From positions 47,518 through 111,517 of the forward strand of contig JBEKHW010000002.1 in NCBI GenBank assembly GCA_050012075.1: a stretch of DNA of 64,000 nucleotides, written 5' to 3'. A program made the position numbers and the translations under genes. The stretch is from Candidatus Omnitrophota bacterium. Its GTDB lineage: Bacteria; Omnitrophota; Gorgyraeia; Gygaellales; Profunditerraquicolaceae. Numbering within the stretch: position 1 is the stretch's first letter; every line of letters starts with the position of its first letter. Below are positions 59,694 to 64,000 of the stretch, one piece after another. Below the pieces are notes generated by a model. That model searched no databases and had not been told where the DNA came from. It saw only the letters and a program-made list of their open reading frames with translations.

Positions 59694-60635
59694 ATGAAAA
59701 TCATATTCTTTGGAAGCGATAAATTCGGAGTCCCGTCTTTAAAAGCGCTATCTTTAGCAGGCTATCATATTTCCTGCGTAGTTACCCAGCCGGACAGGCG
59801 TAAAGGCCGGGGTTTACATTTTGAAGGGACCCCCATTAAGGAAGCAGCCTTTGAGCTAGGGGTTAAGATTTTTCAACCCAGGGATGTTAATTCCAAAGAA
59901 TCATTAGAATACCTTAAAAAAATCGGCGCAGACCTTTTTATAATTATCGCTTATGGCCAGATTTTTTCTCAGGAAACATTGGATTTGCCGAGAATAATGC
60001 CGATAAACCTGCATGCCTCGCTTTTGCCGGCATACAGGGGGGCCGCCCCCATCAACTGGGCGATAATCCAAGGAGAAGGCAAAACTGGCGTAACGGTTGT
60101 CAAGGTTATTCGAAAAATGGATTCAGGACCGGTTATTTTGCAGGAGGAAGCGCCTATTATAAAGGAGGATTCGGTTATAACCCTCGAGGATAAATTAGCC
60201 CAGGTAGGCGCAAAGATCCTTATGGAAGCAATGGTGAAAATAAGTAATAAAAGTTATAAGCTGATCCAGCAGGATGAAAAGAAGGCTAGCCTTGCGCCAA
60301 AATTAAAGAAGTCCGATGGCGCGATCAATTGGGACAGTCCCCCAGAAGATATATATAATCTTATCAGGGGCTGTGCCGGCTGGCCCGGGGCATTCGCGTA
60401 TTACAACGGTAAATTATTAAAGATATATAAGGCAAAAATTAGTTCGCAAGTTCGCAAGTTCGCAAGTTCTAATCCCGGAGAAATCCTGGAAGCCTCCAAA
60501 GAAGGAATAGTTGTATTAACAGGGAAGGGTAACATTATCATAGAGGAATTGCAGATGGAAGGAAAGAGGATTATGAGCGCGGCCCAATTCTTAAGCGGGC
60601 ATAAAATATCCGCAGGCGAACGTTTCGGGACATAG
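59694..60635 (+). CDS. fmt: methionyl-tRNA formyltransferase
   Basis: MKIIFFGSDKFGVPSLKAL, HASLLPAYRGAAPI. Confidence 0.9.
   Translation: MKIIFFGSDKFGVPSLKALSLAGYHISCVVTQPDRRKGRGLHFEGTPIKEAAFELGVKIFQPRDVNSKESLEYLKKIGADLFIIIAYGQIFSQETLDLPRIMPINLHASLLPAYRGAAPINWAIIQGEGKTGVTVVKVIRKMDSGPVILQEEAPIIKEDSVITLEDKLAQVGAKILMEAMVKISNKSYKLIQQDEKKASLAPKLKKSDGAINWDSPPEDIYNLIRGCAGWPGAFAYYNGKLLKIYKAKISSQVRKFASSNPGEILEASKEGIVVLTGKGNIIIEELQMEGKRIMSAAQFLSGHKISAGERFGT
60441..60470 (+). repeat. in-frame 9-nt tandem repeat (AGTTCGCAA x3) inside fmt
   Basis: Direct reading of agttcgcaagttcgcaagttcgcaagttc. Encodes SSQVRKFASS. Confidence 0.6.
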
Positions 60636-60644
60636 ATTATACGT

Positions 60645-60778
60645 GCGGACTTATCCCACACCCAGCCAACAAACTTACATAGCTATGGTTATCTGGGTGT
60701 GCTAATTCACAGACGCTGATAGACAAGCAAATTACAGACGCTACAACCCCGAAGCTTCGGGGTTGTCTGTTCATTAAA
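60645..60778 (+). repeat. intergenic conserved element family A, copy 2
   Basis: Same conserved boxes as 25576-25745. Hairpins CACACCCAG/CTGGGTGTG and ACAACCCCGAAG/CTTCGGGGTTGT replace the copy-1 hairpins. Confidence 0.45.
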
Positions 60779-60785
60779 TTTTTAG

Positions 60786-60813
60786 TTGCATTTATGATTA
60801 GATATGCTACAAT
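60786..60813 (+). promoter_or_regulatory. sigma70-like promoter candidate upstream of the GalT-like pair
   Basis: TTGCAT, a 16-nt spacer, then TACAAT. Confidence 0.3.
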
Positions 60814-60887
60814 TTAGCTCTACAATCGGTACTTTGAAACAGGATTTTACTATGAATCATAAGCTATCAACTATGAACTAAACGAAA

Positions 60888-61913
60888 ATGCCAGAATTAA
60901 GAAAAGACCCTATTATCGGCAGGTGGGTAATTATAGCCACTGAGCGTTCAAAGCGGCCGGACCAGTTTTCTGGAGGCGACCAGAATGCGCCTGCAGAAAA
61001 AACCTGTCCTTTTTGTGAAGGTAGCGAGAAAGAGACCCCTCCTGAAATCTATGCCCTCCGTCCAAGGCATACAGCACCAAATACTCCTGGTTGGGAAATA
61101 AGGGTTGTCCCCAGCATTGCCCCGTTCTTGCGCATAGAGGGAGAACTGGAACGCAGGGGTAAAGGGCTATATGACCTGATGAACGGCATTGGCGCGCACG
61201 AAATTGTCATTGAGACCAACAAGCACACAGCCAATATGGCGGATTTAAGCGAAGAGCAGATTGTTAAGGTTATTGATACTTACATAGATAGAATAGTAGA
61301 TTTGGAAAAAGATGAACGCTTCAAGTATGTCTTGGTCTTTAAAAACTACGGCTGGACAGCCGGGGCCGGCAGGGTAAAACATTCACGCTCTCAGTTGATT
61401 GCCACGCCTGTTAATCCTAAACGCGTAAAGGAAGAATTATTAGGAGCCAGGACTTATTATGATTACCATGACCGCTGCGTATTCTGCGATTTAATCAGGC
61501 AGGAGTTGGCATCAAAGGAGCGTATCATATTGGATGTTGACGGCTTTGTAGCTATTACTCCTTTTGCGGCAAGATTTCCTTTTGAAGCATGGATTTTACC
61601 GAAAAAACATTCCTGTGATTTTACAAGCCTGGATACTCCAGGGAAACTTGGGTTAGCCACGACCATGAAAAAGGTTCTGGCAAAGCTGAAGAAAGGCCTG
61701 AATGACCCGCCTTACAACTATATTATCCATACCGCGCCTTTTAGAAGGGCAAAGGCAGGTTACTGGAAAAGTATTGATTATGATTATCACTGGCATATAG
61801 AGATAATGCCCCGCCTTACCCGCGTGGCAGGTTTTGAATGGGGGACTGGATTCTATATTTGCCCTTTACCCCCGGAAGACGCGGCTAAGTTTTTAAGAGA
61901 GGTTGAGGTTTAG
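60888..61913 (+). CDS. GalT-like (galactose-1-phosphate uridylyltransferase family) paralogue with HxRxQ in place of HxHxQ
   Basis: RWVIIATERS...CPFCEGSE Zn site. KHSRSQ aligns to the paralogue's EHPHTQ. C-terminal YHWHIE half-site present. Confidence 0.65.
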   Translation: MPELRKDPIIGRWVIIATERSKRPDQFSGGDQNAPAEKTCPFCEGSEKETPPEIYALRPRHTAPNTPGWEIRVVPSIAPFLRIEGELERRGKGLYDLMNGIGAHEIVIETNKHTANMADLSEEQIVKVIDTYIDRIVDLEKDERFKYVLVFKNYGWTAGAGRVKHSRSQLIATPVNPKRVKEELLGARTYYDYHDRCVFCDLIRQELASKERIILDVDGFVAITPFAARFPFEAWILPKKHSCDFTSLDTPGKLGLATTMKKVLAKLKKGLNDPPYNYIIHTAPFRRAKAGYWKSIDYDYHWHIEIMPRLTRVAGFEWGTGFYICPLPPEDAAKFLREVEV

Positions 61914-61915
61914 AG

Positions 61916-62917
61916 ATGTCTGAACTGCGCAAAGACCCCATCTGCGGAAGATGGGTGATAGTGGATACGGACCACCCGAATAAGCCGGAAGATTTTGAAT
62001 ACGAACCTCAGGCATATAAAGGCGGAGTGTGCCCTTTTTGTTACGGCAATGAAGCAATGACTCCTCCAGAAATAGAATCCATAAGGGACCCTTCTACCGG
62101 CCCTAATACCTCCGGTTGGCAGGTGCGCGTTGTCCCGAATAAATTTCCCGCCCTGCAGATTGAAGGGGATTTGGACAGGCGCGGGATAGGGATTTATGAT
62201 ATGTCCAGCGGCATCGGAGCGCATGAGGTCTTAATCGAGAATCCCTATCACCAGAAGGATATCCATGAGCTTCTGGATTCCGAGGTGGAGAATTTCTTGA
62301 GTATGTATTGCCGTAGGTCCCTAGACCTGGCAAAGGACAAGCGCTTTAAATATATAATGATTTTTAAGAATTTCGGCGCTGCTGCGGGCGCGTCTCTTGA
62401 GCATCCTCATACGCAACTTATTGCCCTGCCCATGATTCCTAAGAATGTATTGGATGAAATAAAGAGGGCGCACAGTTATTTTGAATTCCGCGAACGGTGT
62501 ATTTTTTGCGATATCGTCAGGCAGGAGCAGCAGGAGAAAGAAAGGATTATCCTTGAAAACGAGGATTTCCTGTCCTTTTGTCCTTTTGTTTCGCGTTTCC
62601 CTTTTGAAATATGGATCATACCAAAGAAACATAATGAGCATTTCTGCCGTATTTCCCAGAGTAATGAAATACCTGCCCTGGCGCGAATATTGAAAGCGAC
62701 CATCGCAGGATTAAAAGCCGTGTTTCCGAATCTTTCATACAATTTTATTATACACACGTCTCCTGTTAACGGGGATGGCGGAGTCGAAGGTTACCATTGG
62801 CATATTGAACTTATGCCTAAATTGACCCGCGTGGCAGGTTTTGAGTGGGGGACAGGATTCTATTTAGTACCCACCCCTCCGGAACTCGCAGCAAAATACC
62901 TGAGAGAAAAACAATAA
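61916..62917 (+). CDS. GalT-like nucleotidyltransferase with intact HPHTQ active-site motif
   Basis: RWVIVDTDHP...CPFCYGNE, FGAAAGASLEHPHTQLIALP, YHWHIE. Confidence 0.7.
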   Translation: MSELRKDPICGRWVIVDTDHPNKPEDFEYEPQAYKGGVCPFCYGNEAMTPPEIESIRDPSTGPNTSGWQVRVVPNKFPALQIEGDLDRRGIGIYDMSSGIGAHEVLIENPYHQKDIHELLDSEVENFLSMYCRRSLDLAKDKRFKYIMIFKNFGAAAGASLEHPHTQLIALPMIPKNVLDEIKRAHSYFEFRERCIFCDIVRQEQQEKERIILENEDFLSFCPFVSRFPFEIWIIPKKHNEHFCRISQSNEIPALARILKATIAGLKAVFPNLSYNFIIHTSPVNGDGGVEGYHWHIELMPKLTRVAGFEWGTGFYLVPTPPELAAKYLREKQ

Positions 62918-62996
62918 GTGAGCGCATAAGTTATGGAGATAGCGGTTTAAGTTAGTCAATCGACATAGCTTAGACCAGTTATAGCGGGCAAATTAA

Positions 62997-64000
<1,004 letters not shown>

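Follow-up and report, generated by a model that had tools for sequence, protein, structure and literature searches.

The P1/P2 locus and its protein family

The window, i.e., the whole 64,000-nucleotide stretch of Candidatus Omnitrophota DNA that was analysed, carries on its forward strand two consecutive genes for GalT-like / ADP-glucose-phosphorylase-like proteins, here called P1 (60888..61913, 341 aa) and P2 (61916..62917, 333 aa); both were recognised as open reading frames with matches to Pfam, NCBIfam and PDB entries. The two proteins align along their full length with 49% identity (E 2e-121) and, as the initial annotation had pointed out, they share the motifs RWVI, CPFC..E, YHWHIE and TRVAGFEWGTGFY, with KHSRSQ in the first protein and EHPHTQ in the second. 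P1 is 100% identical to a public protein (P0001) that bears the NCBI name 'MAG: galactose-1-phosphate uridylyltransferase [Candidatus Omnitrophota bacterium]'.

The TAG stop codon of P1 (61911-61913) and the ATG start codon of P2 (61916-61918) are separated by 2 nt (junction at 61911..61918, + strand), and the 3' end of P1 contains a GAGG-rich stretch ahead of the P2 start; from this layout, translational coupling of the two genes is likely. Upstream of P1, alignment with relatives revealed the promoter-like elements TTGCAT and TACAAT, spaced by 16 nt (60786..60813, + strand). TTGCAT and an A/T-rich TAnAAT align across the window and two related loci (L001 and L002), and TTGCAT is also aligned in a third one (L003), whose slice ends early; these elements provide weak evidence for a promoter candidate. 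A consensus scan for promoters and terminators gave counts not above those of shuffled sequences, and the sole match in an Rfam scan of 60500-63100 was a sub-threshold rimP leader (24 bits versus 47). Directly 3' of P2, translation and BLAST identified gap, encoding glyceraldehyde-3-phosphate dehydrogenase (63012..64000, + strand), which runs off the window end.

Both proteins match the Pfam families GalP_UDP_transf, GalP_UDP_tr_C, DUF4921 and DUF4931_N, exceeding the gathering cut-offs of PF01087 and PF02744, and score above the cut-off of NCBIfam TIGR00209 (105.5 for P1 and 122.8 for P2, cut-off 102.1). The best PDB match of each, extending along the full length, is 1Z84 (At5g18200, the ADP-glucose phosphorylase of Arabidopsis), with E 7.6e-73 over residues 2-340 for P1 and E 1.3e-62 for P2. 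The Zn site formed by C40, C43, H104 and H165 (P1 numbering) shows conservation of 90% or more across P1, P2 and the outgroups, and a second metal site of the Cys-x-x-Cys/His kind in the C-terminal half (C197, C200, H241 and H301) is invariant. Judged from their sequences, P1 and P2 belong to the class I GalT / ADP-glucose phosphorylase branch of the HIT superfamily (IPR001937). The HxHxQ motif of this branch is present in P2 and absent from P1, which is, by the same reasoning, a structural member of the family without the family's defining catalytic feature. The public name galactose-1-phosphate uridylyltransferase is probably an over-annotation for both genes, since against PRK11720, the E. 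coli-type GalT equivalog, the two proteins reach only 125 and 131 bits, under a cut-off of 448.

The wider family is tied to glycogen/alpha-glucan metabolism: single-copy homologues from other phyla adjoin GlgA in 25 of 38 loci, GH57 in 13 and GlgC in 7, and natural fusions of homologues with GlgA and with GH57 were found. These glycogen gene clusters around the single-copy bacterial relatives fit an ADP-glucose-related role and, with the fusions, are indirect evidence for the phosphorylase reaction (ADP-glucose + Pi giving glucose-1-phosphate + ADP). The Omnitrophota pair lies immediately 5' of lower-glycolysis genes, with gap as its neighbour, and not beside glycogen genes, and a tblastn search of the window for glgA and GH57 gave no match.

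Arginine at the nucleophile position of P1

The motif H165-S-R167-S-Q169 of P1 is encoded by CAT TCA CGC TCT CAG (61380..61394, + strand). According to the alignments H165 binds Zn, R167 takes the place of the nucleophilic His and Q169 is kept. HMMER comparison with PDB sequences aligned 'vkHsRsQ' of P1 to 'msHsHsQ' of At5g18200, and the P1 Arg to Gly in 2H39, the entry of a nucleophile mutant ('msHsGsQ'); likewise, in MAFFT alignments of 121 and 141 family members Arg167 shares a column with the second His of HxHxQ. The two methods agree on what the initial annotation had read from the DNA, i.e., that P1 has Arg at the GalT nucleophile position, and no other His of P1 falls at the catalytic position in any of these alignments.

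In P1 one residue is inserted just before the first motif His, in the loop G159-A-G-R162-V-K164 (61362..61379, + strand). Such an insertion could suggest a shift in register, by which His165, normally a Zn ligand, or some other His would be the nucleophile and P1 a normal enzyme. Nevertheless, the insertion leaves the register unshifted, because homologues that carry it (L074, L076, L027, L028, L032 and L036) keep an intact HxHxQ in the same columns; besides, the four Zn ligands are conserved in P1 and Gln169 lies at +2 from position 167. This explanation is very improbable, and it was ruled out by the HMMER and MAFFT alignments.

The same loop is without the phosphate-binding Ser of the family 'GAS' sequence (E. 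coli Ser161, whose role in phosphate binding has been described; bioRxiv 10.64898/2026.09.13.751320, PMC5081055), this Ser being replaced by Gly plus the inserted residue, and it has gained basic residues at positions 162 and 164. In addition, S76-I77 (61113..61118, + strand) stand in place of the Asn-Lys pair of the family (E. coli Asn77, human Asn97): position 76 is Ser in 92% of the Arg-type P1 proteins versus Asn in 100% of P2 and 87% of the single-copy outgroups. Gln169 of P1 is 97% conserved.

Position 167 is occupied by Arg or Lys in 120/120 of the closest P1 homologues. Among the P1-type genes of GTDB species genomes it is Arg in 39 of 43 and His in four, and among metagenome P1 genes located upstream of P2 it is Arg or Lys in 69 of 71, the pattern search giving no read-out for the other two. 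Arg167 is encoded by five different codons (CGT, CGC, CGA, CGG and AGG). The dN/dS values are 0.03-0.06 for P1 and 0.03-0.07 for P2, as calculated for pairs with dS up to about 1.4, given that pairs below about 85% identity have saturated dS and were left out. P1 evolves more slowly than P2, with a mean pairwise distance over 27 genomes of 0.435 versus 0.541. P1 has lost a catalytic residue while purifying selection has been kept, and the recurrence of HxRxQ in relatives, which the initial annotation had proposed to look for together with purifying selection, is confirmed.

These data bear directly on the idea that Arg167 is a recent inactivating mutation, or a sequencing error, in a decaying duplicate. 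CGC is a single transition away from CAC, and nothing beyond this one substitution speaks for the idea; against it, Arg or Lys recurs in over 200 independently sampled orthologues, with synonymous differences among the codons, the dN/dS of P1 is about 0.05, and P1 is the more conserved protein of the two. The probability of this explanation is practically nil; a strain-specific mutation or a pseudogene is ruled out by the conservation, the codon variation and the dN/dS values.

In a neighbour-joining (NJ) tree the P1 and P2 clades are not sisters, although the deep nodes are poorly supported, with bootstrap values of 36-45%, and P1 shares more identity with single-copy proteins of other phyla (54-58%) than with P2 (49%). 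Therefore, the description of the two genes as tandem paralogues applies only in a broad sense. The four P1-type genes with His167 nest among the Arg forms with 100% bootstrap (NJ), from which it follows that the nucleophile was lost or regained more than once. Considering the family as a whole, the combination of H167, N76, R20 and R23 is a hallmark present in 87 of about 125 representatives (50% identity).

Complementary changes in P1 and P2 and a proposed mixed dimer

Apart from the nucleophile region, P1 retains elements that in GalT act on the neighbouring subunit. Its N-terminal arm E19-R20-S-K-R23-P24 (60942..60959, + strand) corresponds to the ERAKRP sequence of the family and aligns with 'phRakRp' of E. 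coli, so that R20 and R23 are equivalent to Arg28 and Arg31 of E. coli and to Arg48 and Arg51 of the human protein; R20 is 100% and R23 92% conserved. Its C-terminal loop T311-RVAGFEWGTG-F322 (61818..61853, + strand) aligns with the Lys311-Gln323 region of E. coli, and its A, G, F, E, G, G and F residues are 100% conserved across P1. In human GALT, Arg48 is on 'the opposite chain' from Gln188 (PMC5081055), and GalT structures indicate that the arm and the C-terminal loop act in trans, the sugar-1-phosphate-binding loop reaching the neighbouring subunit (PMC5081055; bioRxiv 10.64898/2026.09.13.751320). By analogy with the E. coli and human enzymes, Arg20 and Arg23 of P1 would also function in trans.

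P2 shows the opposite pattern. Its motif E162-H163-P-H165-T-Q167 (62399..62416, + strand) is a canonical HxHxQ in which H165 is the predicted nucleophile, and His is 100% conserved at this position in 40 P2 orthologues; N75-K76 (62138..62143, + strand) correspond to the nucleotide-side Asn-Lys kept in the family. In the N-terminal arm D17-T-D-H20-P-N-K23-P24 (61964..61987, + strand), both family arginines are gone. Position 20 is H in 41%, N in 18% and K in 15% of the P2 orthologues versus R in 95% of the outgroups, and position 23 is K in 44%, G in 18% and R in 8% versus R in 82% of the outgroups. The C-terminal loop of P2 is as conserved as that of P1 in the unfused pairs.

The co-occurrence of P1 and P2 is obligate in both directions. 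Searching GTDB genomes with P1, a P2-type gene was found directly downstream in 38/38 loci with enough downstream sequence, and searching JGI metagenomes with P2, P1 was directly upstream in 71/71 loci with usable upstream sequence; no metagenome locus with at least 1100 nt upstream of P2 lacked P1. In 31 of 38 related loci the P2 start codon lies -8 to +4 nt from the P1 stop, the two usually overlapping. The gap gene follows P2 in 36/36 related loci with enough downstream sequence, and in two loci (L085 and L086) pgk, tpi and secG come after gap. A mirror-tree comparison of P1 and P2 gave r = 0.92, with a partial correlation of 0.86 when controlling for the flanking genes fmt and gap.

From these observations it is proposed that P1 and P2 form an asymmetric heterodimeric nucleotidyl-transferase or phosphorylase with one canonical site, built by complementary losses, a reading that we regard as probable. 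In this family each active site is built from two chains, one contributing the cis elements (the Zn-held HxHxQ with the nucleophilic His, the Asn and the phosphate-binding Ser) and the other the trans elements (the two arginines of the ERAKRP arm and the GFE/GYE C-terminal loop that holds the sugar-1-phosphate). P2 would be the catalytic subunit, with all the cis elements kept and the arm arginines gone, and P1 a non-catalytic one that contributes the arm arginines and the loop, its own His and Asn having changed to Arg167 and Ser76, and its Ser to Gly plus the inserted residue. The arm of P1 (R20 and R23) would reach into the P2 active site in trans, and, because the losses are complementary, a single canonical site (P2 cis and P1 trans) would exist only in the P1:P2 dimer. 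This site would run through the ping-pong reaction usual for the family, with a covalent His-NMP, and its substrate would probably be an NDP-glucose such as ADP-glucose. The second pocket, made of P1 cis and P2 trans elements, would be non-canonical on both sides and unable to form the histidyl-nucleotide intermediate. Nevertheless, it probably still binds a ligand, because Arg/Lys167, Ser76 and Gln169 are strongly conserved; this would probably be a phosphorylated ligand bound without turnover, with a regulatory or structural role. The initial annotation had offered a pseudo-enzyme or regulatory partner, or different chemistry, as readings of P1; the complementary losses of P1 and P2 favour 'partner', and different chemistry is less likely.

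Further, indirect support for the mixed dimer comes from a fusion lineage with three members (P0121, P0271 and P0272; 596-599 aa, 52-56% identity with P0121), whose genes occupy the P1/P2 slot upstream of gap-pgk-tpi. In unit 1 of the fusion the CPFC Zn site, the NKFP region and HxHxQ are gone, while the ERAKRP arm, the C-terminal half and a perfect AGFEWGTG loop are kept; unit 2 is P2-type (EHPHTQ), with no arm and a relaxed loop. BLAST did not assign unit 1 to either the P1 or the P2 clade. An AlphaFold2 model of P0121 had a pTM of 0.70 and a mean pLDDT of 75, and it does not confirm the proposed packing, since the arm and both trans loops have pLDDT <50. P0133, a diverged protein in the P1 slot, has lost a Zn His and the Gln and keeps the arm and the C-terminal half. 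P0133 and P0128, both of the Arg type, each come with a partner in the same priA-fmt gene context.

The gene linkage, the co-evolution and the likely coupling of translation would also fit a tight partnership without a mixed dimer, in which P1 is a stand-alone ligand-binding or regulatory protein, e.g., a homodimeric nucleotide-sugar sensor, and P2 a homodimeric enzyme of the same pathway; moreover, three other nucleophile-less homologues (P0126, P0132 and P0184), from other lineages, occur without an adjacent intact copy. However, this arrangement leaves unexplained why P2 lost exactly the arm arginines kept by P1, and why the fusion retains only the trans-acting parts of unit 1 and drops the arm of unit 2, and it demands a P2 homodimer without two residues that are conserved in 82-95% of the single-copy relatives. 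For these reasons it is considered unlikely.

It could also be argued that P1 is itself active, either on its own as a homodimer or together with P2, and that its chemistry involves no covalent histidyl-nucleotide. Arg/Lys167 might, for instance, stabilise the transition state of a direct in-line attack, the attacking group being phosphate, water or a sugar-phosphate and the target a bound nucleotide-sugar or dinucleoside polyphosphate. The pocket is indeed not decaying: residues 167 (Arg/Lys, 100%), 76 and 169 are kept at the levels given above, basic residues were gained at 162 and 164, and position 167 is only His, Arg or Lys within a highly conserved P1 clade that shows a dN/dS of about 0.05 and diverges less than P2. 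Conservation also extends to the P2 loop predicted to complete the P1 pocket; this and the conserved pocket residues of P1 would be just as expected if that pocket had real activity. On the other hand, to our knowledge every characterised member of the class I GalT-like branch uses a His nucleophile, which speaks against an active P1. This mechanism has been described for GalT and for Apa2, and At5g18200 is on record with a nucleophile mutant (bioRxiv 10.64898/2026.09.13.751320; PMC5081055). In addition, with a degenerate arm in P2, the P1 pocket would receive neither of the trans arginines. P0133 has shed further pocket residues and unit 1 of the fusion the whole N-terminal catalytic half, both nevertheless keeping the arm and the C-terminal half. 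An active P1 is thus quite improbable.

Within the proposed heterodimer, a further possibility, more doubtful than otherwise, is that the cationic pocket of P1 (Arg/Lys167, residue 162, Lys/Arg164, Ser76 and Gln169) acts as an allosteric sensor that gates the catalytic site, a nucleotide-sugar or sugar-phosphate being bound there without turnover. If this were true, the pocket would couple NDP-glucose or alpha-glucan turnover to the downstream gap-pgk-tpi genes, the switching between His and Arg in some lineages would mean that the site has been converted repeatedly from catalysis to sensing or back, and P1 would be the first member of the HIT/GalT superfamily described with a regulatory pseudo-active-site.

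Comparison with known systems

Class I GalT-type enzymes are textbook homodimers in which each active site borrows residues from the partner chain; human GALT is the enzyme of galactosemia. The closest known structure is that of At5g18200 (PDB 1Z84, 1ZWJ and 2H39), whose Zn sites, ARAKRP arm, HxHxQ region and GGFEIGTG loop align with P1 and P2. This protein is a homodimer with two identical active sites (bioRxiv 10.64898/2026.09.13.751320), in contrast with the two differing chains of the Omnitrophota pair, where P1 is without the nucleophile and P2 without the arm arginines. The GalT enzymes from E. coli and human (1HXP, 1GUP and 5IN3) are a distant match (E about 1e-21) with the same fold and the same composite site across the dimer interface, and equivalents of E. 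coli Arg28, Arg31, Asn77, Ser161, His164, His166, Gln168 and the 311-323 loop could be identified in P1/P2. They differ in that the metal site of the C-terminal half of P1 and P2 has Cys-x-x-Cys, as in At5g18200 and unlike GalT, and in that GalT is a homodimer whereas P1:P2 is proposed to be mixed. The Omnitrophota pair resembles a natural dissection of the shared GalT site, with the trans parts in one chain and the cis parts in the other, and this split has been held over a long evolutionary span under strong selection.

A heteromer of catalytic and non-catalytic paralogues is known in plant ADP-glucose pyrophosphorylase, which has a small catalytic and a large modulatory subunit. The likeness lies in a paralogue without catalytic residues that is under purifying selection and always accompanied by an active one. 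The fold and the chemistry are unrelated, and in the P1/P2 case neither paralogue is complete, and their losses complement each other, since the ancestral enzyme already had an active site divided between its chains. A survey of the literature on HIT/GalT pseudoenzymes, heterodimers, DUF4921/DUF4931 and GH57 with GalT revealed no comparable case. If confirmed, the P1:P2 dimer would be the first heteromeric, half-of-sites member of the class I GalT family, a natural system that separates the cis from the trans contributions to catalysis, and a clear case in which two paralogues have become locked together by complementary degeneration.

Absence of His from the nucleophile position is not exclusive to P1, as it was observed in 14 of 139 representatives (50% identity). 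Examples of such motifs, from metagenome proteins, are HPVSY in P0126, HPVSK in P0184, HTYSY in P0256 (the upstream side of which ends at the contig end) and HSYSH in P0132. These proteins belong to the same broad family as P1 and differ from it in having Val, Tyr, Ile, Ser, Cys or Leu instead of Arg or Lys, and in their gene contexts; judging from their sequences, P0126, P0132, P0184 and P0256 look like independent losses of the nucleophile.

Two GalT-like genes and the residue at the nucleophile position

The two tandem GalT-like genes of the initial annotation were confirmed as exact open reading frames of the + strand, i.e., P1 at 60888-61913 (341 aa) and P2 at 61916-62917 (333 aa), the latter starting 2 nt past the P1 stop. 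The proteins are 49% identical over their full length (E 2e-121), and share matches to NCBIfam TIGR00209 and, in Pfam, to the N- and C-terminal domains of GalT, to DUF4921 and to DUF4931_N. The cut-off for an E. coli-type GalT equivalog (448 bits) was far from reached, with 125 and 131 bits for P1 and P2, and neither protein is such an equivalog. The best solved structure for both is At5g18200, the Arabidopsis ADP-glucose phosphorylase (PDB 1Z84), aligned over the full length with E 7.6e-73 and 1.3e-62; since this is the closest structure, our best guess for the substrate is an NDP-glucose, probably ADP-glucose. A protein from a Candidatus Omnitrophota MAG at NCBI, 100% identical to P1, is named 'galactose-1-phosphate uridylyltransferase', a public name that is probably wrong for the whole GalT-like group. 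P2 has the sequence features of the family and P1 lacks the defining nucleophile.

In the structure-database alignment, SHSHSQ of At5g18200 pairs with KHSRSQ of P1, and the Gly of the nucleophile mutant of this enzyme (entry 2H39) falls in the column of the P1 Arg; P2 has the canonical motif, EHPHTQ. Ahead of the first His, P1 has one extra residue. A shift of register is hardly credible, given that two MAFFT alignments (121 and 141 relatives) agree on the Arg column, and it was ruled out because relatives that share the insertion hold HxHxQ in the unchanged columns. The register is thus secure, and the claim that Arg replaces the nucleophilic His in the first paralogue stands on the PDB and both MAFFT alignments.

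The 120 closest homologues of P1 (78-100% identity) have either HxRxQ (114) or HxKxQ (6). Among the 80 loci examined in GTDB species genomes there are 43 P1-type genes, 39 with Arg and 4 with His at this position, and in unfused pairs position 167 is occupied by Arg, Lys or His (the last in four genomes) and by nothing else. Five codons (CGT, CGC, CGA, CGG and AGG) encode the Arg among relatives, therefore it has been kept through many synonymous changes; in pairs with dS of about 1.4 or less, P1 has dN/dS values of 0.03-0.06 and P2 of 0.03-0.07. P1 evolves more slowly than P2, with a mean pairwise distance of 0.435 versus 0.541 in 27 genomes, and its identity to the window copy is the higher one in nearly every genome. 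A recent, strain-specific inactivation, with P1 as a decaying copy, has practically no probability, being ruled out by the conservation, the codon variety, dN/dS and the slower evolution; the recurrence in relatives and the purifying selection that the initial annotation had proposed to look for were both found. In a bootstrapped NJ tree with the motif column left out, the four His-bearing P1 genes share their groups with Arg forms (L033 clusters with L027, L028 and L032, and L036 with L064, L034 and L039, both at 100%), which implies at least three changes of state at position 167; by the simplest count, Arg was gained once and reverted twice (CGT to CAT).

Linkage of the pair and its neighbourhood

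In a search with P1, every P1-bearing locus that extends far enough downstream (38 of 38) proved to have a P2-type gene with intact HxHxQ as the next gene. These loci are from Omnitrophota or from MAGs labelled Planctomycetota or PVC; 38 remoter loci (Nitrospirota, Zixibacteria, Ignavibacteria and others) have one HxHxQ gene each. The reverse search, with P2 as query in JGI metagenomes, gave 80 loci; in 71, P2 is immediately preceded by a P1-type gene (complete in 67, truncated where the contig ends in 4), the remaining nine have less than 500 nt of upstream sequence, and none of the 80 has room for P1 and lacks it. HxR/KxQ was read in 69 of these 71 genes, the pattern search being unsuccessful on the other two. 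The pair is obligate. In 31 of 38 loci, P2 starts -8 to +4 nt from the P1 stop, and a stop and a start within a few nucleotides are the usual arrangement for translational coupling. A minority of loci (L008 5030-5438, L009 5030-5300, L004, L022 and L026) shows 120-410 nt between the genes and no overlap. The P1 and P2 distance matrices correlate with r = 0.92 (partial correlation 0.86 once the share due to fmt and gap is taken out), a value that is supportive only, pairwise distances being non-independent.

The conserved order is priA-fmt-P1-P2-gap, with gap after P2 in 36 of the 36 loci with enough sequence. The Omnitrophota pair heads gap(-pgk-tpi), in contrast to the single-copy homologues of other phyla (38 loci, L042-L080), which belong to glycogen gene clusters and lie beside genes for the glycogen synthase GlgA (25), GH57 enzymes (13) and GlgC (7); the GalT-like domain is also found fused to GlgA (P0143, 814 aa) and to GH57 (P0172 and P0202, about 860-875 aa). 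The 64-kb window itself has neither glgA nor a GH57 gene. Compared with the window copy, the gap gene downstream of P2 (63012-64000 in the window; L001-L041) is either about 76-90% or about 54-64% identical, two classes that are out of step with the P1, P2 and fmt distances (r about 0.27), which suggests that gap was replaced or transferred within Omnitrophota. In the diverged lineage of P0128, a CBS-domain protein (441 aa; L087, 2168-3493) lies between fmt and the P1-type gene, and LPG_synthase_TM and DHquinase_II take the place of gap downstream of P2. Upstream of P1, an element formed by TTGCAT, 16 nt and TACAAT aligns across related genomes; a generic promoter scan gave nothing above background. 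The 252-nt fmt-P1 spacer includes a GC-rich hairpin of 10 bp with a weak T tail, ACAACCCCGAAGCTTCGGGGTTGT (60743-60766), that may be the fmt terminator; an Rfam scan of 60500-63100 gave a single, sub-threshold match (rimP leader, 24 bits versus 47).

Complementary losses and a putative mixed dimer

At5g18200 and the class I GalTs are homodimers with active sites between subunits, and completion of the pocket needs dimerisation (preprint, bioRxiv 10.64898/2026.09.13.751320). The glucose-1-phosphate site of human GALT is formed by Lys334, Phe335, Val337, Tyr339, Glu340 and Gln346 of one chain, and Gln188 and Asn173 of the other; Arg48 (E. coli Arg28) is on the chain opposite Gln188, and UDP-glucose contacts in E. 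coli GalT are Arg28, Arg31, Gly159 and Ser161 (PMC5081055). P1 and P2 are predicted to work in the mode of these class I GalTs and ADP-glucose phosphorylase.

Comparison of Arg-type P1 (n=39), P2 (n=40) and single-copy outgroups (n=38) revealed 71 positions with a conservation of 90% or more in each group, including both Zn sites, Gln169 (E. coli Gln168) and the G-F-E-x-G-x-G-F loop. The residues changed in P1 but conserved in P2 and the outgroups are all located around P1's own pocket: position 167 (E. coli His166; P1 165 aligns with His164) is Arg/Lys in P1 and His in 100% of P2 and outgroups; Asn-Lys at 76-77 (76 is E. coli Asn77) is Ser76-Ile77 in P1 (Ser 92%), with Asn in 100% of P2 and 87% of outgroups; and the Ser of the 'GAS' loop (E. 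coli Ser161), present in 100% of P2 and 74% of outgroups, is replaced in P1 by Gly and one inserted residue, often Arg. The N-terminal arm is kept by P1 and lost by P2 (DTDHPNKP in the window). Position 20 of the arm, in the motif ERAKRP (E. coli Arg28), is Arg in 100% of P1 and 95% of outgroups versus H 41%, N 18% and K 15% in P2; position 23 (E. coli Arg31) is Arg in 92% and 82% versus K 44%, G 18% and R 8%. His167, Asn76, Arg20 and Arg23 together are the family norm (87 of ~125 representatives).

A P1:P2 dimer would have one wholly canonical site, formed by the cis residues of P2 with the arm and loop of P1, and a second site non-canonical from both sides; a P2 homodimer would miss both arm arginines, and a P1 homodimer the nucleophile, at both sites. 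From these sequence patterns we favour the proposal that P1 and P2 act as a heterodimer with complementary half-sites, i.e., two different chains in contrast to the homodimers of At5g18200 and class I GalTs. The earlier reading of P1 as a pseudo-enzyme or regulatory partner is supported by the obligate pairing and the complementary losses, and is here sharpened into this half-site model. It is quite improbable that P1 has independent chemistry of its own, and unlikely that it is a stand-alone binding protein.

A lineage of natural fusions supports the proposed heterodimer. P0121, P0271 and P0272 (596-599 aa, 52-56% identity with P0121, from independent samples) have two GalT-like units each, and the two that were placed on contigs are both directly upstream of gap-pgk-tpi-secG. 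Unit 2 is clearly P2-type (EHPHTQ) and begins at its CPFC motif, therefore it has no arm; its loop is relaxed (GFEWSTGS, GFERETEI, GFELATGS), and the pocket that this loop would serve is the dead one. Unit 1, of P1-type or other descent, is devoid of the CPFC Zn site, the NKFP and GAHE regions and the HxHxQ motif, and retains the invariant arm VERAKRPNDF, the entire C-terminal half and a perfect AGFEWGTG loop. This is the pattern expected if the trans elements were the sole contribution of the P1-slot unit. Confidence in the AF2 model of P0121 is only moderate (pTM 0.70), and its arm and loops stay under pLDDT 50. Another double GalT-like fusion, P0159 (871 aa), has HxHxQ in both units (HAHSQ, HPHSQ) and a long, low-complexity N-terminus.

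No paper on a HIT/GalT superfamily member that is heteromeric or has a pseudo-subunit turned up in a literature search of incomplete coverage, which amounts to absence of evidence and no more. Other enzyme families commonly include dead-paralogue partners.

The P1 pocket and other nucleophile-less proteins

No decay of the P1 pocket is seen in unfused pairs: Ser76 and Gln169 are conserved, its loop has gained basic residues at 162 and 164, and the P2 loop that would complete it is still conserved. The partner P2 arms in the His-bearing P1 lineages are also degenerate (EIDKAKNP, LYDQIKSP), therefore the pair already lacked the trans arginines of this pocket in its ancestral state. The pocket probably still binds some phosphorylated ligand, without covalent catalysis; a true allosteric role is conceivable but doubtful. 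Diverged P1-slot proteins lose more pocket residues, such as P0133 (HSRSH, one Zn His changed to Asn), and P0128 has HVRSQ and a longer insertion, which shows that some lineages can do without this pocket.

In the GalT-like family as a whole, the His is absent in 14 of 139 representatives (50% identity). Nucleophile-less proteins with no adjoining intact copy were seen at L081 (P0126), L089 (P0132), L090 (P0184) and L084 (P0256), the last cut by the contig end on its upstream side. In these four the nucleophile is replaced by Val or Tyr, and they lie in unrelated surroundings, i.e., a universal stress protein and type III pantothenate kinase, a baeRF-family protein, and AIRC with Ni_insertion (LarB/LarC-like).
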